DNA of 64,000 nucleotides, from assembly GCF_003018255.1 (NCBI RefSeq), contig NZ_CP027440.1; one strand, given 5' to 3'. How positions within the stretch are numbered: the first letter of the stretch is position 1; each line of letters starts with the position of its first letter. Positions 8,568 through 62,376 of this stretch are shown here, piece after piece. The position numbers and the translations under genes are program-made. The stretch is from Escherichia coli (GTDB taxonomy: Bacteria > Pseudomonadota > Gammaproteobacteria > Enterobacterales > Enterobacteriaceae). The notes under the pieces are model-generated. The model saw nothing but the letters and a program-made list of their open reading frames with translations, was not told the origin of the DNA and made no database searches.

Positions 8568-8660
8568 AGACCAAAGCAAATTTGAGAGATATCTTCTTCT
8601 GTCTTGCAACAGAAGAACAGAAAATCGGGCTTTTGCGCCTGAATATTGCGGAGAAAAAGC

Positions 8661-11192
8661 ATGGCCGGGAATGACCGCGAGCCAATTGGACGCAAAGGGA
8701 AACCGACGCGTCCGGTCAAACAAAAGGTAAGCCGTCGTCGTTACGAAGATGACGATTACGACGATTATGATGACTATGAGGATGAAGAACCGATGCCGCG
8801 CAAAGGTAAGGGCAAAGGCAAAGGGCGTAAGCCTCGTGGCAAACGCGGCTGGCTATGGCTGCTGCTAAAACTGGCTATCGTTTTTGCCGTGCTGATCGCC
8901 ATTTACGGCGTTTATCTCGATCAAAAAATTCGCAGCCGTATTGATGGCAAGGTCTGGCAATTGCCCGCGGCAGTTTATGGCCGAATGGTCAACCTTGAGC
9001 CAGACATGACCATCAGCAAGAACGAAATGGTGAAGCTGCTGGAGGCGACCCAGTATCGTCAGGTGTCGAAAATGACCCGTCCTGGCGAATTTACCGTGCA
9101 GGCCAACAGCATTGAGATGATCCGCCGTCCGTTTGATTTCCCGGACAGTAAAGAAGGGCAGGTGCGTGCGCGTCTGACCTTTGATGGCGATCATCTGGCG
9201 ACGATCGTCAATATGGAGAACAACCGTCAGTTTGGTTTCTTCCGTCTTGATCCGCGCCTGATCACCATGATCTCCTCGCCAAACGGTGAGCAGCGTTTGT
9301 TTGTGCCGCGCAGTGGTTTCCCGGATTTGCTGGTGGATACTTTGCTGGCGACAGAAGACCGCCATTTCTACGAGCATGATGGGATCAGTCTCTACTCCAT
9401 CGGACGTGCGGTGCTGGCAAACCTGACCGCCGGACGCACGGTGCAGGGTGCGAGTACGCTGACGCAACAGCTGGTGAAAAACCTGTTCCTCTCCAGCGAG
9501 CGCTCTTACTGGCGTAAAGCGAACGAAGCTTACATGGCGCTGATCATGGACGCGCGTTACAGCAAAGACCGTATTCTTGAGCTGTATATGAACGAGGTGT
9601 ATCTCGGTCAGAGCGGCGACAACGAAATCCGCGGCTTCCCGCTGGCGAGCTTGTATTACTTTGGTCGCCCAGTAGAAGAATTGAGCCTCGACCAGCAGGC
9701 GCTGTTGGTGGGTATGGTGAAAGGGGCGTCCATCTACAATCCGTGGCGTAACCCGAAACTGGCGTTGGAGCGACGTAATCTGGTACTGCGTCTGCTGCAA
9801 CAGCAACAGATTATTGATCAAGAACTCTATGACATGTTGAGTGCACGTCCGCTGGGGGTTCAGCCGCGCGGTGGGGTGATCTCTCCACAGCCAGCCTTTA
9901 TGCAACTGGTGCGTCAGGAGCTGCAGGCAAAACTGGGCGATAAGGTAAAAGATCTCTCCGGCGTGAAGATCTTCACTACCTTTGACTCGGTGGCCCAGGA
10001 CGCGGCAGAAAAAGCCGCCGTGGAAGGCATTCCGGCACTGAAGAAACAGCGTAAGTTGAGCGATCTTGAAACCGCGATTGTGGTCGTCGACCGCTTTAGT
10101 GGTGAAGTTCGTGCGATGGTTGGAGGTTCTGAGCCGCAGTTTGCGGGCTACAACCGTGCGATGCAGGCGCGTCGTTCGATTGGTTCCCTTGCAAAACCAG
10201 CGACTTATCTGACGGCCTTAAGCCAGCCGAAAATCTATCGCCTGAACACGTGGATTGCGGATGCGCCAATCGCGCTACGTCAGCCGAATGGCCAGGTCTG
10301 GTCACCGCAGAACGATGACCGTCGTTATAGCGAAAGCGGCAGAGTGATGCTGGTAGATGCGTTGACCCGTTCGATGAACGTGCCGACGGTGAATCTGGGC
10401 ATGGCGTTGGGGCTGCCTGCGGTTACGGAGACCTGGATTAAACTGGGTGTGCCGAAAGATCAACTGAATCCAGTTCCAGCAATGTTGTTGGGGGCGTTGA
10501 ACTTAACGCCAATCGAAGTGGCGCAGGCGTTCCAGACCATCGCCAGCGGTGGTAACCGTGCTCCGCTTTCTGCACTGCGTTCGGTAATCGCGGAAGATGG
10601 CAAGGTGCTGTATCAGAGCTTCCCGCAGGCGGAACGCGCTGTTCCGGCGCAGGCGGCGTATCTGACACTATGGACCATGCAGCAGGTGGTACAACGTGGT
10701 ACGGGGCGTCAGCTTGGGGCGAAATACCCGAACCTGCATCTGGCAGGGAAAACAGGGACTACCAACAATAACGTAGATACCTGGTTTGCGGGCATTGACG
10801 GCAGTACGGTGACCATCACCTGGGTAGGCCGTGATAACAACCAACCGACCAAATTGTATGGAGCCAGCGGGGCAATGTCGATTTATCAGCGTTATCTGGC
10901 TAACCAGACGCCAACACCGCTGAATCTTGTTCCGCCAGAAGATATTGCAGATATGGGCGTGGACTATGACGGCAACTTTGTTTGCAGCGGTGGCATGCGT
11001 GTCTTGCCGGTCTGGACCAGCGATCCGCAATCGCTGTGCCAGCAGAGTGAGATGCAGCAGCAGCCGTCAGGCAATCCGTTTGATCAGTCTTCTCAGCCGC
11101 AGCAACAGCCGCAACAGCAACCTGCTCAGCAAGAGCAGAAAGACAGCGACGGTGTAGCCGGTTGGATCAAGGATATGTTTGGTAGTAATTAA
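8661..11192 (+). CDS. mrcB: Penicillin-binding protein 1B (bifunctional glycosyltransferase/transpeptidase)
   Basis: ORF track 8646..11192 (+); start at [13 protein letters not shown]...; acidic [14 protein letters not shown] tract, TM helix [29 protein letters not shown] and SxxK motifs, Q/P-rich C-terminus. Confidence 0.93.
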
Positions 11193-11208
11193 CGTCTAAG
11201 CGTGACAT

Positions 11209-11233
11209 ACCGGATGGCGAGTAGCCATCCGGT
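11209..11233 (+). terminator. Perfect 10-bp stem hairpin (accggatggc-gagta-gccatccggt) just downstream of mrcB stop; no U-tract
   Basis: Read from sequence; followed by A-rich not T-rich sequence, so function as intrinsic terminator is uncertain. Confidence 0.3.
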
Positions 11234-11340
11234 AAAATAACATCCCACCCAAAGTATTAACCCTTTCTTTTCATCTGGTTGTTTATTAACCCTTCAGGAA
11301 CGCTCAGATTGCGTACCGCTTGCGAACCCGCCAGCGTTTC

Positions 11341-11390
11341 GAATATTATCTTATCTTTATAATAATCATTCTCGTTTACGTTATCATTCA
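11341..11390 (+). promoter_or_regulatory. Fur-box-like AT-rich repeats (gaatattatcttatc / tttataataatcattctcg / ttatcattc) in the fhuA promoter region
   Basis: About 14/19 match to the GATAATGATAATCATTATC consensus, 20-70 bp upstream of fhuA start; fhuA is a classical Fur-repressed gene. Confidence 0.5.
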
Positions 11391-11411
11391 CTTTATATCA
11401 GAGATATACCA

Positions 11412-13601
11412 ATGGCGCGTTCCAAAACTGCTCAGCCAAAACACTCACTGCGTAAAATCGCAGTTGTAGTAGCCACAGCGGTTAGCGGCATGTCTGTTTA
11501 TGCACAGGCAGCGGTTGAACCGAAAGAAGACACTATCACCGTTACCGCTGCACCTGCGCCGCAAGAAAGCGCATGGGGACCGGCTGCAACTATTGCGGCG
11601 AAGCACTCTGCTACTGCGACTAAAACGGATACACCAATTGAAAAAACGCCGCAGTCTATTTCGGTTGTGACAAATGAAGAGATGCAGATGCATCAATTTC
11701 AGTCTGTAAAAGAAGCATTAGGTTATACACCTGGCGTTACGGTTAGCAGTCGTGGTGCTTCTAATACATATGATTTTGTTATTATTCGTGGTTTCTCATC
11801 TGTTGGTCTGAATCAAAATAATTACCTTGATGGACTAAAACTTCAGGGCAACTTTTATAACGATGCTGTGATTGATCCTTACATGCTCGAGAGGGTTGAA
11901 CTGATGCGCGGGCCGACGTCTGTTCTCTATGGGAAAAGTAATCCTGGTGGGATTATTTCTATGGTGAGTAAGCGTCCGACAACTGAACCCCTGAAAGAAA
12001 TTCAGTTTAAAATGGGGACGGATAATCTGTTTCAGACCGGATTCGATTTCAGTGATGCGCTGGATGATAACGGTGAGTTCTCCTACCGTTTGACTGGCCT
12101 CGCACGCTCAACAAACGAACAGCAGAAAAACTCTGAATCTCAGCGTTATACCATTGCTCCATCATTCTCATGGCGTCCAGACGACAAAACCAATTTTACT
12201 TTCCTGTCCTATTTTCAGAACGAACCAGAAACGGGTTATTACGGTTGGTTGCCGAAAGAGGGGACCGTTGAGCCATTGCCTAATGGTAAGCGTCTACCGA
12301 CTGACTTCAATGAAGGTGCATCGAATAATACATACTCCCGTAACCAGAAAATGGTGGGATATAGTTTTGAACATGGTTTTAATGACACCTTCACCGTGCG
12401 TCAGAATCTGCGTTTCAGTGAAATGAAAACCTCACAGAAAAGTGTTTATGGCACAGGGATTGCCAGCGATGGTCATACCCTAAACCGCGGGACAGTGGTG
12501 GATAATGAGCGTCTGCAAAACTTTAGCGTTGATACCCAACTTGAAAGTAAATTTGCTACAGGTGAAGTCGAGCATACTTTGCTGACAGGGGTAGACTTCA
12601 TGCGTATGCGCAATGATATCAATGCCAGCTTTGGATCTGCACCATCCATCGATCTTTATAACAAATATCATCCTGAATACTTTGCATTTGGTAACGCAGA
12701 GCCATACCAAATGAATGAAAGCAAACAAACAGGTATTTATGTTCAGGATCAGGCGGAATGGAATAAATGGGTATTCACTCTGGGGGGACGCTACGATTGG
12801 TCTAAGCAAGCGACCACTGTTCGTGAAAACTCTTATACGCCGACTGAAGGTTATATTGAGCGTAATGATCATCAGTTCACCTGGCGCGGTGGTGTAAACT
12901 ACTTATTCGATAATGGTATTTCACCTTACTTTAGTTATAGCCAGTCCTTTGAACCGAGTGCTTTCGATCTGTGGAGCAACCCGCGCGTTTCCTATAAGCC
13001 ATCGAAAGGTGAACAGTATGAAGCTGGCGTAAAATATGTTCCGAATGATATGCCGGTCGTTGTTACGGGCGCAGTCTATCAATTGACGAAAACAAATAAC
13101 CTGACAGCAGACCCAACAAACCCGTTAGCGCAAGTCCCAGCAGGTGAGATTCGCGCTCGTGGTGTGGAACTTGAAGCAAAAGCGGCGTTAAATGCCAATA
13201 TTAACTTGACGGCTTCTTATACCTACACAGATGCGGAATACACCAAAGACACCAATCTCAAAGGTAAAACTCCAGAACAAGTACCGGAGCATATGGCATC
13301 TCTCTGGGGGGATTATACCTTCAATGAAGGGCCGCTTTCTGGTTTAACATTGGGAACAGGTGGTCGTTTTATTGGTTCCAGCTATGGTGATCCGGCGAAC
13401 ACTTTTAAAGTGGGTAGCGCAGCTGTAATGGATGCTGTTGTAAAATATGATCTGGCACGCTTTGGTATGGCGGGATCCAGCCTTGCTGTGAACGTCAACA
13501 ATTTGCTCGATCGTGAGTATGTTGCCAGTTGCTTCCAGACCTATGGCTGCTTCTGGGGCGCAGAACGTCAGGTCGTTGCAACCGCAACCTTCCGTTTCTA
13601 A
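11412..13601 (+). CDS. fhuA: Ferrichrome outer-membrane transporter / phage receptor FhuA (TonB-dependent), divergent allele
   Basis: ORF track 11412..13601 (+), 729 aa; signal peptide MARSKTAQPKHSLRKIAVVVATAVSGMSVYAQA, TonB box DTITVTA, C-terminal ...CFWGAERQVVATATFRF. Confidence 0.93.
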   Translation: MARSKTAQPKHSLRKIAVVVATAVSGMSVYAQAAVEPKEDTITVTAAPAPQESAWGPAATIAAKHSATATKTDTPIEKTPQSISVVTNEEMQMHQFQSVKEALGYTPGVTVSSRGASNTYDFVIIRGFSSVGLNQNNYLDGLKLQGNFYNDAVIDPYMLERVELMRGPTSVLYGKSNPGGIISMVSKRPTTEPLKEIQFKMGTDNLFQTGFDFSDALDDNGEFSYRLTGLARSTNEQQKNSESQRYTIAPSFSWRPDDKTNFTFLSYFQNEPETGYYGWLPKEGTVEPLPNGKRLPTDFNEGASNNTYSRNQKMVGYSFEHGFNDTFTVRQNLRFSEMKTSQKSVYGTGIASDGHTLNRGTVVDNERLQNFSVDTQLESKFATGEVEHTLLTGVDFMRMRNDINASFGSAPSIDLYNKYHPEYFAFGNAEPYQMNESKQTGIYVQDQAEWNKWVFTLGGRYDWSKQATTVRENSYTPTEGYIERNDHQFTWRGGVNYLFDNGISPYFSYSQSFEPSAFDLWSNPRVSYKPSKGEQYEAGVKYVPNDMPVVVTGAVYQLTKTNNLTADPTNPLAQVPAGEIRARGVELEAKAALNANINLTASYTYTDAEYTKDTNLKGKTPEQVPEHMASLWGDYTFNEGPLSGLTLGTGGRFIGSSYGDPANTFKVGSAAVMDAVVKYDLARFGMAGSSLAVNVNNLLDREYVASCFQTYGCFWGAERQVVATATFRF

Positions 13602-13651
13602 TTTTTTCTTTGGGGCACGGATTTCCGTGCCCGCTTCACAAGTTGGCTGTT

Positions 13652-14449
13652 ATGCAGGAATACACGAATCATTCCGATACCACTTTTGCACTGCGTAATA
13701 TCTCCTTTCGTGTGCCAGGGCGCACGCTTTTGCATCCGCTGTCGTTAACCTTTCCTGCCGGGAAAGTGACTGGTTTGATTGGTCACAACGGTTCTGGTAA
13801 ATCCACTCTGCTCAAAATGCTTGGCCGTCATCAGCCACCGTCGGAAGGCGAAATTCTTCTTGATGCCCAGCCGCTGGAAAGCTGGAGCAGCAAAGCGTTC
13901 GCCCGCAAAGTGGCTTATTTGCCGCAGCAGCTTCCTCCGGCAGAAGGGATGACCGTGCGTGAACTGGTGGCGATTGGTCGTTACCCGTGGCATGGCGCAC
14001 TGGGGCGCTTTGGTGCGGCAGATCGCGAAAAGGTCGAAGAGGCGATTTCGCTGGTTGGCTTAAAACCGCTGGCGCATCGGCTGGTCGATAGTCTCTCTGG
14101 CGGCGAACGTCAGCGGGCGTGGATCGCTATGCTGGTGGCGCAGGATAGCCGTTGTCTGTTGCTCGACGAACCGACCTCGGCGCTGGATATCGCCCACCAG
14201 GTTGATGTGCTGGCGCTGGTGCATCGTTTAAGTCAGGAACGTGGTCTGACGGTCATTGCCGTGCTGCACGATATTAATATGGCTGCGCGCTACTGTGATT
14301 ATCTGGTCGCCCTGCGCGGTGGTGAAATGATTGCTCAGGGAACGCCTGCGGAAATTATGCGCGGCGAAACCCTCGAAATGATTTATGGCATCCCGATGGG
14401 TATTCTGCCGCATCCGGCGGGTGCTGCACCTGTGAGTTTTGTTTATTGA
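13652..14449 (+). CDS. fhuC: Iron(III)-hydroxamate ABC transporter ATP-binding protein
   Basis: ORF track 13529..14449 (+); start at ATG 13652 (MQEYTNHSDTTFALRN..., 265 aa); Walker A GHNGSGKST, signature LSGGERQRA. Confidence 0.93.
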   Translation: MQEYTNHSDTTFALRNISFRVPGRTLLHPLSLTFPAGKVTGLIGHNGSGKSTLLKMLGRHQPPSEGEILLDAQPLESWSSKAFARKVAYLPQQLPPAEGMTVRELVAIGRYPWHGALGRFGAADREKVEEAISLVGLKPLAHRLVDSLSGGERQRAWIAMLVAQDSRCLLLDEPTSALDIAHQVDVLALVHRLSQERGLTVIAVLHDINMAARYCDYLVALRGGEMIAQGTPAEIMRGETLEMIYGIPMGILPHPAGAAPVSFVY

Positions 14450-15339
14450 TGAGCGGCTTACCTCTTATTTCGCGCCGCCGACTGTTAACGGCGATGGCGC
14501 TTTCTCCGTTGTTATGGCAGATGAATACCGCCCACGCGGCGATTATTGATCCCAATCGTATTGTGGCGCTGGAGTGGTTGCCGGTGGAATTACTGCTGGC
14601 GCTCGGCATCGTGCCTTACGGCGTGGCGGACACCATCAACTATCGCCTGTGGGTCAGCGAACCGCCATTGCCGGACTCAGTGATTGACGTTGGTTTGCGT
14701 ACAGAACCCAACCTTGAACTGCTGACCGAAATGAAACCGTCGTTTATGATCTGGTCGGCAGGATATGGCCCTTCACCAGAAATGCTGGCACGTATTGCGC
14801 CGGGGCGCGGATTTAACTTCAGCGACGGCAAACAGCCGCTGGCGATGGCGCGTAAATCACTGACGGAAATGGCAGATTTACTTAACCTGCAAAGCGCAGC
14901 AGAAACGCATTTAGCGCAATATGAAGACTTTATCCGCAGCATGAAACCCCGCTTTGTGAAGCGTGGTGCACGCCCGTTATTGCTGACGACGCTTATCGAT
15001 CCGCGCCATATGTTGGTCTTCGGTCCAAACAGCTTGTTCCAGGAAATTCTTGATGAGTACGGCATCCCAAATGCCTGGCAAGGGGAAACCAACTTCTGGG
15101 GCAGTACCGCCGTCAGTATCGATCGTCTGGCGGCGTATAAAGACGTTGATGTGCTCTGTTTTGATCACGACAACAGCAAAGACATGGATGCGCTAATGGC
15201 AACCCCGCTGTGGCAGGCCATGCCGTTTGTCCGTGCAGGACGTTTTCAGCGCGTTCCGGCGGTCTGGTTCTATGGCGCGACGCTTTCGGCAATGCACTTT
15301 GTGCGTATTCTGGATAACGCCATCGGAGGTAAAGCGTGA
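14449..15339 (+). CDS. fhuD: Iron(III)-hydroxamate periplasmic binding protein
   Basis: ORF track 14446..15339 (+); ATG 14449 overlaps fhuC stop by 1 nt; MSGLPLISRRRLLTAMALSPLLWQ (Tat-like signal). Confidence 0.92.
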   Translation: MSGLPLISRRRLLTAMALSPLLWQMNTAHAAIIDPNRIVALEWLPVELLLALGIVPYGVADTINYRLWVSEPPLPDSVIDVGLRTEPNLELLTEMKPSFMIWSAGYGPSPEMLARIAPGRGFNFSDGKQPLAMARKSLTEMADLLNLQSAAETHLAQYEDFIRSMKPRFVKRGARPLLLTTLIDPRHMLVFGPNSLFQEILDEYGIPNAWQGETNFWGSTAVSIDRLAAYKDVDVLCFDHDNSKDMDALMATPLWQAMPFVRAGRFQRVPAVWFYGATLSAMHFVRILDNAIGGKA

Positions 15340-17318
15340 GTAAACGAATTGCGCTTTTTCCGGCGTTATTGCTGGCGCTGCTGGTGATTGTCGCTACGGC
15401 GCTCACCTGGATGAACTTCTCGCAGGCGTTGCCGCGCAGCCAGTGGGCGCAGGCCGCCTGGTCGCCGGATATTGACGTCATCGAGCAGATGATTTTTCAC
15501 TACAGCTTGTTGCCGCGTCTGGCGATTTCGCTGCTGGTGGGCGCGGGCCTGGGGCTGGTGGGCGTGCTGTTTCAGCAAGTGCTGCGTAACCCGCTGGCGG
15601 AACCGACGACGTTGGGCGTTGCAACAGGCGCGCAACTGGGGATTACCGTCACTACGCTCTGGGCGATCCCAGGTGCTATGGCGAGCCAGTTTGCTGCGCT
15701 GGCAGGGGCTTGCGTTGTTGGCTTAATTGTCTTTGGCGTCGCGTGGGGGAAACGGCTGTCGCCGGTAACGCTGATCCTCGCGGGGCTGGTAGTGAGCCTT
15801 TATTGTGGGGCAATCAATCAGTTACTGGTTATCTTCCATCACGACCAGCTACAAAGCATGTTCCTGTGGAGCACCGGAACGCTGACGCAAACCGACTGGG
15901 GCGGCGTTGAGCGTTTATGGCCGCAGCTGCTGGGCGGCGTGATGCTGACGTTATTGCTACTTCGCCCGTTAACCCTGATGGGGCTTGATGATGGCGTGGC
16001 GCGCAATCTCGGTCTGGCCTTGTCGCTGGCGCGTCTGGCGGCGCTGTCGCTGGCGATAGTCATCAGTGCGCTGCTGGTGAATGCAGTGGGGATTATCGGC
16101 TTTATCGGGTTGTTCGCGCCGCTGCTGGCAAAAATGCTGGGGGCGCGGCGTCTGCTGCCACGGTTAATGCTGGCGTCGCTGATTGGTGCGTTAATTCTGT
16201 GGCTTTCTGATCAAATCATCCTCTGGCTGACTCGCGTGTGGATGGAAGTTTCCACCGGTTCGGTCACTGCGTTGATCGGTGCGCCGCTGCTACTGTGGCT
16301 GCTGCCGCGTTTACGCAGCATTAGCGCGCCGGATATGAAGGTCAACGATCGTGTCGCGGCTGAACGCCAACATGTGCTGGCGTTTGCCCTCGCGGGCGGC
16401 GTGCTGCTGTTGATGGCTGTGGTAGTGGCGCTGTCGTTTGGTCGTGATGCGCACGGCTGGACGTGGGCGAGCGGGGCGTTGCTCGAGGATTTAATGCCCT
16501 GGCGCTGGCCGCGAATTATGGCGGCGCTGTTTGCGGGCGTCATGCTGGCGGTGGCGGGCTGTATTATTCAGCGGCTGACCGGAAACCCGATGGCAAGCCC
16601 GGAAGTGCTGGGGATTAGCTCCGGCGCGGCGTTTGGCGTGGTGTTGATGCTGTTTCTGGTGCCGGGTAATGCCTTTGGCTGGCTGTTACCTGCAGGCAGT
16701 CTCGGCGCGGCGGTGACGCTGTTGATCATTATGATCGCCGCCGGACGCGGTGGATTTTCCCCACACCGCATGTTACTGGCGGGGATGGCGTTAAGTACCG
16801 CGTTCACCATGCTTTTGATGATGTTGCAGGCAAGTGGTGACCCGCGAATGGCGCAAGTGCTGACCTGGATCTCCGGTTCGACCTACAACGCGACCGATGC
16901 GCAGGTCTGGCGCACGGGAATTGTGATGGTAATTTTGCTGGCGATTAACCCGCTGTGCCGCCGCTGGCTGACCATTTTACCGCTGGGCGGTGATACCGCA
17001 CGAGCCGTAGGAATGGCGCTGACGCCGACGCGAATTGCGCTGCTGCTATTAGCGGCTTGCCTGACGGCGACCGCGACGATGACTATTGGACCGTTGAGTT
17101 TTGTTGGTTTAATGGCACCGCATATTGCGCGGATGATGGGTTTTCGACGGACGATGCCACACATCGTAATTTCGGCGCTGGTGGGTGGTTTACTGCTGGT
17201 GTTCGCTGACTGGTGTGGGCGGATGGTATTGTTTCCATTCCAGATCCCGGCGGGGCTGCTGTCAACCTTTATCGGCGCGCCATATTTTATCTATTTGTTG
17301 AGAAAGCAGAGCCGTTAA
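15336..17318 (+). CDS. fhuB: Iron(III)-hydroxamate ABC transporter permease (fused duplicated domains)
   Basis: ORF track 15336..17318 (+), 660 aa; GTG start overlapping fhuD stop by 4 nt; two homologous halves, highly hydrophobic. Confidence 0.93.
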   Translation: MSKRIALFPALLLALLVIVATALTWMNFSQALPRSQWAQAAWSPDIDVIEQMIFHYSLLPRLAISLLVGAGLGLVGVLFQQVLRNPLAEPTTLGVATGAQLGITVTTLWAIPGAMASQFAALAGACVVGLIVFGVAWGKRLSPVTLILAGLVVSLYCGAINQLLVIFHHDQLQSMFLWSTGTLTQTDWGGVERLWPQLLGGVMLTLLLLRPLTLMGLDDGVARNLGLALSLARLAALSLAIVISALLVNAVGIIGFIGLFAPLLAKMLGARRLLPRLMLASLIGALILWLSDQIILWLTRVWMEVSTGSVTALIGAPLLLWLLPRLRSISAPDMKVNDRVAAERQHVLAFALAGGVLLLMAVVVALSFGRDAHGWTWASGALLEDLMPWRWPRIMAALFAGVMLAVAGCIIQRLTGNPMASPEVLGISSGAAFGVVLMLFLVPGNAFGWLLPAGSLGAAVTLLIIMIAAGRGGFSPHRMLLAGMALSTAFTMLLMMLQASGDPRMAQVLTWISGSTYNATDAQVWRTGIVMVILLAINPLCRRWLTILPLGGDTARAVGMALTPTRIALLLLAACLTATATMTIGPLSFVGLMAPHIARMMGFRRTMPHIVISALVGGLLLVFADWCGRMVLFPFQIPAGLLSTFIGAPYFIYLLRKQSR

Positions 17319-20279: not shown

Positions 20280-20360
20280 ACGAAATACCAGGGTATTAGA
20301 TAATGGCGATTATTATTGGGTTAGAATTTGCCCAATTGCCGATGTCGTTTGGAGCAAAAT

Positions 20361-59780: not shown

Positions 59781-60605
59781 TCACTGAGTCAGCCCAACAA
59801 AGCGACCCGCCTTGATATAAATCCCTGGCTTCAGGTGCCCAACATACTGTAACTGCGTTTCTGGCTTAAACGCAGAGACATCACCAATACGCATATGCAT
59901 CAGATCGGCAGGGCTAATCCAGCCCGATTGCGCCAGTGTAAGCGGATGCCCGGCTTTGGCAAATGCATCAGTGACAAATTCCGAACAAAACCACGACTTT
60001 TTGTCTCCTTCGCCCACACTGCTTAACTGCGCTTTCGCCAGGCCGCTGACGCACTGTTGACGAAAATCCTCGGAGAACGGATTCAGTGAGCACACCTGGC
60101 GAGTCACCATAAAGGGAATAAATTCGACAATGCCGCGATAGTTATAACCGCTATCTTTGATTTTATTAGCAAACGCGGTGATATCTGTGGCTTGTTGCGG
60201 GGTAAGATCCGGGACTCGTAAGACGAAAAGCTTATCACTGTGCTTCATCGCTTTTTTAAGGGAAACGATCTGGACGCCAGCGCCTGTCGCTTCTGCAACG
60301 TTATTATCACCCAGAAAGATTGCAACGTGACTCACAGAGGAAGTGCTGAAGACGCGGATTCCAAATGAGGTTACCCCAAGGCTTGAGGAGAACAGCAAAT
60401 CGCCGGGTTTGAGATCAGGTGCCGTTATTTCTTTTATTGATTGTTCGGTGAAAGAGCTTTGATGCTGGAATTTGACTACCCATGTTTTTGCCTCGACATC
60501 TACCGCTGTGGCAGAGGAGTCTGGCTGGCTGATATCAACGGTACAGGCCGAAAGTAAAAGAAAGCAGGGGAGAAGCAGGCGGTAGTACGCCTTTGGTTTA
60601 TCCAT
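59781..60605 (-). CDS. yaeF: Predicted lipoprotein, permuted papain-fold (NlpC/P60-like) peptidase family
   Basis: ORF track 59781..60614 (-); start at ATG 60603-60605 (MDKPKAYYRLLLPCFLLLSAC lipobox, 274 aa). Confidence 0.85.
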   Translation of the reverse strand: MDKPKAYYRLLLPCFLLLSACTVDISQPDSSATAVDVEAKTWVVKFQHQSSFTEQSIKEITAPDLKPGDLLFSSSLGVTSFGIRVFSTSSVSHVAIFLGDNNVAEATGAGVQIVSLKKAMKHSDKLFVLRVPDLTPQQATDITAFANKIKDSGYNYRGIVEFIPFMVTRQVCSLNPFSEDFRQQCVSGLAKAQLSSVGEGDKKSWFCSEFVTDAFAKAGHPLTLAQSGWISPADLMHMRIGDVSAFKPETQLQYVGHLKPGIYIKAGRFVGLTQ

Positions 60606-60621
60606 TTTATACAATCCATGT

Positions 60622-60650
60622 AAAAAAGGGCCCTGAAATTCAGGACCCTT
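60622..60650 (-). terminator. Intrinsic terminator after proS (minus-strand stem gggtcctg/cagggccc, one mismatch, + TTTTTT)
   Basis: Read from sequence between proS stop (60658) and yaeF start (60605). Confidence 0.6.
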
Positions 60651-60657
60651 TCTGGCA

Positions 60658-62376
60658 TCAGCCTTTAATCTGTTTCACCAGATATTCGACGATGTCACCA
60701 GTCTTAATTAACTGTTTCTCGCCGTTGCGACGATATTTATATTCGATATCGTCGTTGTCGAGGTTACGGTCGCCCAGCACAATAGTGTGCGGAATACCGA
60801 TCAGTTCCATATCAGCAAACATCACGCCCGGACGCTCTTTGCGGTCATCCAGCAGCACTTCGATACCTTGTGCACGCAGTGCGCTGTACAGTTTCTCAGC
60901 AAGCTCCTGTACGCGGAAGGATTTGTGCATGTTCATCGGCAGAATCGCCACCTGGAACGGCGCGATAGCGTCAGGCCATACGATGCCGCGCTCGTCATAG
61001 TTCTGCTCAATCGCCGCAGCTACTACACGCGTTACCCCGATACCGTAGCAACCCATCGTCAGGATTTGGTTACGGCCATCTTCACCCTGTACGGAGGCTT
61101 TCAGTGCTTCGGAGTACTTGGTACCCAGCTGGAAGATGTGACCAACTTCGATACCACGTTTGATCAGCAGCGTACCCTGACCATCCGGGCTTGGATCGCC
61201 AGCCACCACGTTGCGGATATCAGCAATTTCCGGGGTAGCGACATCGCGATCCCAGTTGATACCGAAGTAGTGTTTACCATCGATGTTAGCACCAGCAGCG
61301 AAATCACTCATCGCCGCAACGGTACGGTCAATCACCACCGGAATTGGCATGTTTACCGGACCCAGTGAGCCAGGGCCGGCTTTAACCACGGCACGAATTT
61401 CTTCTTCGGTCGCGAAAGTCAGCGGGCTTGCAACCTGCGGCAGTTTTTCTGCTTTAACTTCGTTCAGCTCGTGGTCACCGCGCACCAGCAGCGCAACCAG
61501 CGGGAAGCTACTGCCTTCAACCGCTTTAACCAGCAGGGTCTTAACCGTTTTCTCAATCGGCAGATTGAACTGTTCAACCAGTTCCGCGATGGTCTTCGCG
61601 TTCGGCGTATCAACCAGCGTCATTTCCTGGGTAGCAGCAGCGCGCGGTTCTTTCGGCGCGATAGCTTCTGCCAGTTCAATGTTCGCTGCATAGTCAGAGG
61701 TGTCGGAGAAGACCACATCGTCTTCACCGCTTTGCGCCAGCACCTGGAATTCGTGAGAGGCGCTACCGCCGATAGAACCGGTATCGGCCTGTACGGCGCG
61801 GAAATCCAGCCCCATGCGGCTGAAGATTTTGCTGTAGGCCGCATACATTGCATCGTAGGTTTCCTGCAGGGATTCCTGAGAGGTATGGAAAGAGTAAGCA
61901 TCTTTCATCAGGAATTCGCGGGAACGCATGACGCCGAAACGCGGGCGCACTTCATCACGGAACTTAGTCTGGATCTGATAGAAGTTCAGCGGCAGCTGTT
62001 TGTAAGAGCTCAGCTCGTTACGAATCAGGTCGGTAATCACTTCTTCATGAGTTGGGCCAAGTACGAACGGACGGTCACCACGGTCAGCAATACGCAGCAA
62101 TTCCGGGCCATACTGTTCCCAACGACCACTCTCTTGCCACAGTTCAGATGGCTGAACCACCGGCATTAACACCTCAATCGCACCGGCGTTGTTCATCTCT
62201 TCACGCACGATGTTTTCGACTTTTTTCAGAACGCGCACGCCGGTCGGCAGCCAGGTGTATAACCCGGAGGCCAGCTTGCGGATCATCCCGGCGCGCAGCA
62301 TCAGCTGATGGCTGATCACCTCGGCGTCGGCAGGTGTCTCCTTGAGAGTGGAGAGCAGGTATTGGCTAGTACGCAT
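60658..62376 (-). CDS. proS: Prolyl-tRNA synthetase
   Basis: ORF track 60658..62430 (-); start at ATG giving [20 protein letters not shown]... (572 aa). Confidence 0.96.

Follow-up and report, generated by a model that had tools for sequence, protein, structure and literature searches.

Is the run of AT-rich repeats in front of fhuA in this stretch of Escherichia coli DNA an operator for the iron regulator Fur, and is it still intact at a locus where the receptor gene itself has diverged from that of K-12? The window analysed here, that is, the whole stretch of 64,000 nucleotides, holds the mrcB-fhuACDB-hemL segment of the E. coli chromosome. A first-pass annotation made from the sequence alone had described overlapping Fur-box-like repeats at positions 11341-11390 and placed them at the fhuA promoter. 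We conclude, at a probability of roughly 95%, that this element serves as the Fur operator at the sigma-70 promoter that drives fhuACDB, the operon for uptake of ferrichrome and hydroxamate siderophores. The promoter is a textbook case of Fur regulation, and the finding is correct and already known.

The open reading frames around the element encode MrcB upstream (8646-11192), FhuA, FhuC, FhuD and FhuB downstream, and HemL on the opposite strand. All six products exceed their NCBIfam equivalog cut-offs, FhuA being assigned with 1411 bits, and the gene order mrcB-fhuA-fhuC-fhuD-fhuB, with hemL facing the other way, is the K-12 layout and that of an fhuACDB operon. The fhuA gene occupies 11412-13601 on the plus strand and is followed on the same strand by fhuC, fhuD and fhuB (13652-17318), which are co-transcribed with fhuA from one Fur-controlled promoter; the transcription unit is given as fhuACDB in a published Fur ChIP-exo table (PMC10164565 supplement). 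A spacer of 219 bp separates mrcB from fhuA and is present in 5,421 of 5,426 complete E. coli genomes. Just 3' of the mrcB stop codon lies a hairpin with a 9-bp stem, CCGGATGGC-GAGTA-GCCATCCGG (11211-11233), which is not followed by a T-run, received no call from the terminator scan and may be a structure of the mrcB 3' end. An Rfam scan of 11000-11800 returned no RNA family, and hence no riboswitch or known sRNA in the fhuA leader.

How far does the divergence of fhuA extend? The encoded FhuA protein has 729 residues and is 74% identical to that of K-12, 95% to that of Salmonella enterica and 94% to that of a Citrobacter sp. It is 18 residues shorter than K-12 FhuA, and the gaps include one of 17 residues at about positions 354-370 of the K-12 precursor, within which lies the Cys pair of a surface loop. 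This loop is L4, a contact for phages and colicin. At the DNA level, identity to K-12 is 95-100% on both flanks and drops to 46-85% solely within ~11598-13541. By this alignment, fhuA is a mosaic of a native E. coli 5' end and a recombined body of Salmonella/Citrobacter type (~11601-13541), and native E. coli DNA makes up the promoter as well as the part that encodes the signal peptide and the first ~60 codons. The Salmonella-type allele is found in 562 of the 5,426 complete genomes, with no intermediates seen, and four sampled carriers have the promoter in common as well as both junctions, the 5' one at 11583-11601 and the 3' one at ~13541-13605. A paper on ST410 reports the same dimorphism, in the form of two FhuA alleles whose nucleotide identity is <74% (PMC6715731), and WP_000124383.1, encoded by one sampled carrier, is one of the two. 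With regard to the source genome, 11150-11480 and 11600-13601 are 100% identical to NZ_AP025214.2, while the yaeF-proS stretch at 60500-61000 has no match of at least 99% in the 5,426 complete genomes, the best listed match being 98.8%. For this reason, either the collection lacks the genome of the window or this genome is locally mosaic.

The promoter can be laid out in detail, with every feature on the plus strand. The promoter scan places a -35 hexamer TTGCGA at 11320-11325 (-36 to -31) and a -10 hexamer TATTAT at 11344-11349 (-12 to -7), separated by an 18-nt spacer. The start predicted from this conserved layout is 11356, 6 nt downstream of the -10 hexamer, and it is the same base to which the K-12 Cappable-seq start at 167428 (score 31.4) maps in identical sequence. 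The resulting 5' UTR is 56 nt long and carries a Shine-Dalgarno-like CAGAGA (11399-11404) that ends 7 nt before the ATG. The fhuA start of K. pneumoniae, taken from the TSS profiling data of Kim 2012, in which the E. coli sheet has no fhuA entry, precedes the ATG by 55 nt, follows TATTAT at a distance of 8 nt and aligns with window 11356. A weak second Cappable-seq start is present in K-12 at 167477, equivalent to window 11405 and 7 nt before the ATG. A perfect TATAAT at 11358-11363 was considered as the -10 and rejected: it reads CATAAT in most genera, no conserved -35 is found at the right distance, and the mapped start at 11356 lies upstream of it. This hexamer is not the -10 and belongs to the Fur box.

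From 11255 to 11395 the window is base-for-base identical to K-12 MG1655, and the sole nearby difference is a T in place of C at 11396, which lies in the 5' UTR at +41, outside the operator. The divergent tract lies wholly inside the open reading frame, and the promoter is intact because recombination stayed within that frame and never replaced the promoter. The earlier statement that the iron-regulation module is intact despite a divergent fhuA is therefore true, although unsurprising.

The identity to K-12 brings a body of published work to bear on this promoter. Chen et al. 2007 (PMC2189734) defined a Fur cluster at K-12 167439 consisting of three sites over 31 bp (19.5 bits) and obtained a gel shift with 150 nM Fur. 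This coordinate maps to window 11367, the central C of AATAAT-C-ATTCTC. When three 19-bp sites are placed 6 bp apart around this base, a placement of our own, the 31-bp span is 11352-11382, or about -4 to +27, and the operator so defined overlaps the core promoter and start, with the -10 at 11344-11349 and the TSS at 11356. In a Fur pan-regulon study, ChIP-exo peaks were reported at 167456-167466 in MG1655 and 167456-167468 in W3110 (PMC10164565 supplement); these map to window 11384-11394 and, with W3110, out to 11396, 10-20 bp off the core box. The MG1655 peaks P2 (window 11146-11182) and P4 (11569-11600) were rejected as operators, neither being among the top consensus or weight-matrix matches of the window. 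Deletion of fur derepressed fhuA in eight of nine E. coli strains, with log2FC of 1.07-5.0, and the derepression reported for K-12 MG1655 was just ~2-fold (PMC10164565). Given this small effect and a moderate 14/19 match to the consensus, repression of fhuA by Fur may be leaky. Moreover, a PfhuA-lacZ fusion is repressed by Fur (PMC4676285), and RT-qPCR shows higher fhuA transcript levels in delta-fur (PMC7315122). A paper on a PfhuA expression vector (PMC3621691) was discarded as evidence because it used the PfhuA of Vibrio cholerae and not that of E. coli. In K-12, whose sequence is identical here, Fur has thus been demonstrated to bind both in vitro and in vivo, expression to depend on Fur and transcription to start at the mapped base, and shared sequence predicts that the same Fur control would operate in the source strain.

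Could the box be intact and fhuACDB nevertheless be effectively free of iron and Fur regulation in this strain, whether through a defective Fur, a dominant second regulator, the C>T change at 11396 or the foreign coding block? The fur gene lies outside the window, and 11396 is T here and C in K-12 and in three other carriers of the Salmonella-type allele. In addition, fhuA is classed as an 'accessory', not a 'core', member of the Fur regulon, since a single strain of the nine fell short of the threshold and the fold-changes range from 2x to 32x (PMC10164565). However, the cis element, the -35, the -10 and the TSS region are all identical to K-12, the change at +41 falls outside both the conserved Fur block and the Shine-Dalgarno sequence, and the foreign block starts ~190 nt into the reading frame. 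To our knowledge, Fur is also nearly universal in E. coli. Loss of regulation in this strain is accordingly very improbable, and regulation by Fur through the operator at fhuA is preferred.

How well does the element stand as a Fur box on its sequence? The consensus scored was the 19-bp GATAATGATAATCATTATC, and the best match is CTTTATAATAATCATTCTC at 11355-11373, the classical Fur box of this promoter, which agrees at 14 of 19 positions, as had been claimed. The three quoted strings also lie where they had been reported, gaatattatc at 11341-11350, ttataataatcattctc at 11357-11373 and ttatcattc at 11381-11389, such that the element extends from 71 to 23 nt upstream of the fhuA ATG (11412), over the mapped transcription start, and its location at the fhuA promoter is confirmed. 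As Fur-box repeats the three fare differently: the second is the core operator and the third a conserved downstream extension of it, but the first is mainly the -10 hexamer TATTAT.

A lone 14/19 match is weak. Matches at this level or better occur at 6 places in the 64 kb, including coding sites within clcA and proS, where ~1 would be expected from dinucleotide shuffles; a single match is not exceptional by itself, and the count alone is unconvincing. The sites at fhuA are, in addition, phased. Scores taken every 6 bp at 11349, 11355, 11361, 11367 and 11373 are 12, 14, 13, 11 and 10 of 19, and this run of at least three overlapping sites ranks first in the window and agrees with the published K-12 cluster of three sites over 31 bp. 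The shuffles attain its 3-site sum of 39 in 2% of cases and its 5-site sum of 60 in 0 of 200.

An independent measure was provided by a position weight matrix (PWM) built from 11 DNase-footprinted K-12 Fur operators (fepA-fes, fepD-entS, fepB, entC, fur, tonB, cirA, sodA, fecA, fhuF1 and fhuF2), with operator coordinates from Table 3 of Chen et al. 2007 (PMC2189734) and with fhuA excluded. The best match to this matrix in the whole 64-kb window is AATAATCATTCTCGTTTAC at 11361-11379, with 15.6 bits and a consensus score of 13/19. This second Fur box overlaps the first and lies 6 bp downstream of it, and the first box, at 11355, scores 12.4 bits and ranks fifth in the window. Both values fall inside the range of the training operators (12.2-22.6 bits). 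Two other matches in the window were observed. At 20299-20317, in the clcA-erpA spacer and 45-63 nt upstream of the erpA ATG (20362), GATAATGGCGATTATTATT matches the consensus at 14/19 and is third-best in the window by PWM (13.9 bits); it might be a Fur-like site at the Fe-S carrier gene erpA. At 60732-60750, GATATTTATATTCGATATC has 14/19 and 15.1 bits and lies within the proS coding region on the opposite strand, where it is probably a chance palindrome.

The element is also conserved well beyond E. coli. FhuA relatives were drawn from GTDB representative genomes, amounting to 80 loci from ~30 genera, and all 80 carry a Fur box of 13-15/19 located 48-71 nt upstream of the start codon. An alignment of the promoter across 24 genera, which covers Enterobacteriaceae, Hafnia, Ewingella, Rahnella and Erwinia, resolves four conserved islands, namely the -35, the -10, the Fur block and CAGAGA. 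Within the -35 the TTG (11320-11322) is invariant, as are T1, A2, A5 and T6 of the -10 hexamer, and the spacer between the two is always 18 nt; within CAGAGA the AGAGA is invariant and the leading C nearly so. The Fur block, ATAATAAT(A/C)ATT(C/A)TCGTTTAC and then GTTATCATTC (11357-11389), is almost invariant. In the downstream extension, GTTATCATTCACTTT (11380-11394), which is also the position of the ChIP-exo peak, TT at 11381-11382 and TT at 11387-11388 are invariant and CA at 11385-11386 is nearly so. The AT-rich stretch between the -10 and the core box is found only in the two Escherichia sequences and in Hafnia.

Within the species, 4,182 of the 5,426 complete E. coli genomes carry the 54-nt span 11341-11394 at 100% identity, and 1,232 more have 1-2 changes in it. 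The stretch 11353-11394 is invariant in seven diverse strains, some of which have a fimbrial operon between mrcB and fhuA. In DA33135 and WL297, in which a fimbrial gene cluster is inserted at this place, homology to the window resumes at ~11319-11333, that is, at the -35, and the strains with a fimbrial operon keep the -35 as TTGCGA or TTGCTA, with the -10 and the Fur box unchanged. Such a fimbrial insertion is the probable reason why identity over 11150-11480 is just 80-90% in 564 genomes.

These comparisons bear on whether the resemblance to the Fur consensus could be accidental, the repeats being generic promoter sequence (a -10 and an AT-rich initial transcribed region) to which Fur does not bind. 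The first repeat really is the -10 hexamer, and 14/19 is attained at six places in the window, some of them coding, as at proS 60732. Furthermore, the region encoding the N-terminal part of MrcB (8742-8790), a run of GAT/GAC/TAT codons for an acidic Asp/Tyr-rich repeat, yields a phased cluster with a 5-site sum of 59 as compared with 60 at fhuA, and this cluster is clearly a false positive of consensus counting. Because of these six places and the near-equal mrcB score, consensus counting alone is insufficient. Against an accidental resemblance stand three other lines of evidence: the independent PWM ranks no site of the window above the one at fhuA, 24 genera share an unvarying block 3' of the TSS, which promoter function alone would not demand, and gel shift, ChIP-exo and delta-fur data are published for the identical K-12 sequence. 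We therefore regard chance likeness as barely credible and retain the identification of the repeats as a Fur operator. Least credible of all is the proposal that another AT-tract-binding regulator (e.g. H-NS or an OmpR/RstA-type protein) is the main one to act at the repeats, with Fur secondary, for although the tract is AT-rich and the states of envZ/OmpR and RstA change fhuA expression (PMC7315122), the effect of envZ(R397L) on fhuA needs Fur and acts via intracellular Fe2+, not direct binding (PMC7315122), no OmpR or RstA motif was noted, and the 6-bp phasing and PWM fit are specific to Fur.

How would the Fur operator silence the promoter? The array has two to three overlapping sites for Fur dimers in 6-bp phase over about -4 to +27 (11352-11382), and weaker AT-rich hexamers flank it across the -10 and as far as +34. 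With iron in sufficient supply, Fe2+-Fur dimers would fill the array, and bound Fur would keep RNA polymerase from making a productive open complex or from moving off the start site, presumably by steric occlusion. When iron is scarce, Fur would leave and fhuACDB would be transcribed as one unit.

A further suggestion concerns the upstream edge of the array. The AT-rich hexamers ATTATC and CTTATC lie on and just past the -10 (11341-11355), where the consensus scores are 12/19 at 11349 and 11352 and the PWM scores 5.3 and 5.1 bits, and judged from these letters they might take part in Fur binding as an upstream extension of the array. One could imagine that Escherichia extended an ancestral Fur array upstream through the AT-rich ATCTTT, which forms these hexamers with the -10, and we consider this doubtful. 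If it were true, Fur in E. coli would block access to the -10 hexamer as well as to +1, and the tightness of repression or the iron threshold could differ from those of other enterics; the extension would also have been kept unchanged even with the receptor body swapped for the Salmonella type.

For the strain itself, the cis-acting iron control of ferrichrome uptake is unchanged although a Salmonella-like body has taken the place of the native one in FhuA, a receptor that phages, colicin and albomycin also use. The result is of use for annotation and for the reading of receptor-allele swaps, and it adds nothing new on Fur regulation.

The closest known system is the K-12 fhuACDB operator (fhuAp), which has the same -35, -10, TSS, Fur cluster, distance to the ATG and downstream operon as the window; the window differs from it in the SNP at 11396 and in the Salmonella-type body of fhuA downstream. 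The fhuA promoters of other Enterobacterales, including Klebsiella, Citrobacter, Enterobacter, Kosakonia, Rahnella, Erwinia and Hafnia, share the -35 TTGC, the -10 TAnnAT, the core, the Shine-Dalgarno sequence and a 13-15/19 box at -48 to -71 relative to the start codon, and in K. pneumoniae transcription starts at the equivalent base. Most of them differ from Escherichia in having A for the central C (11367) and, between the -10 and the box, GC-rich bases in place of ATCTTT. Among footprinted Fur operators of E. coli (fepA-fes, fepB/entC, fepD-entS, cirA, fur, tonB, sodA, fecA and fhuF), the design is the same as at fhuA, with overlapping 19-bp boxes or GATAAT hexamers in 6-bp phase lying over a sigma-70 promoter. 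The fhuA array differs from these in that most of it lies past the -10, over +1 to +27, and its match to the consensus is in the middle-to-lower part of their range.
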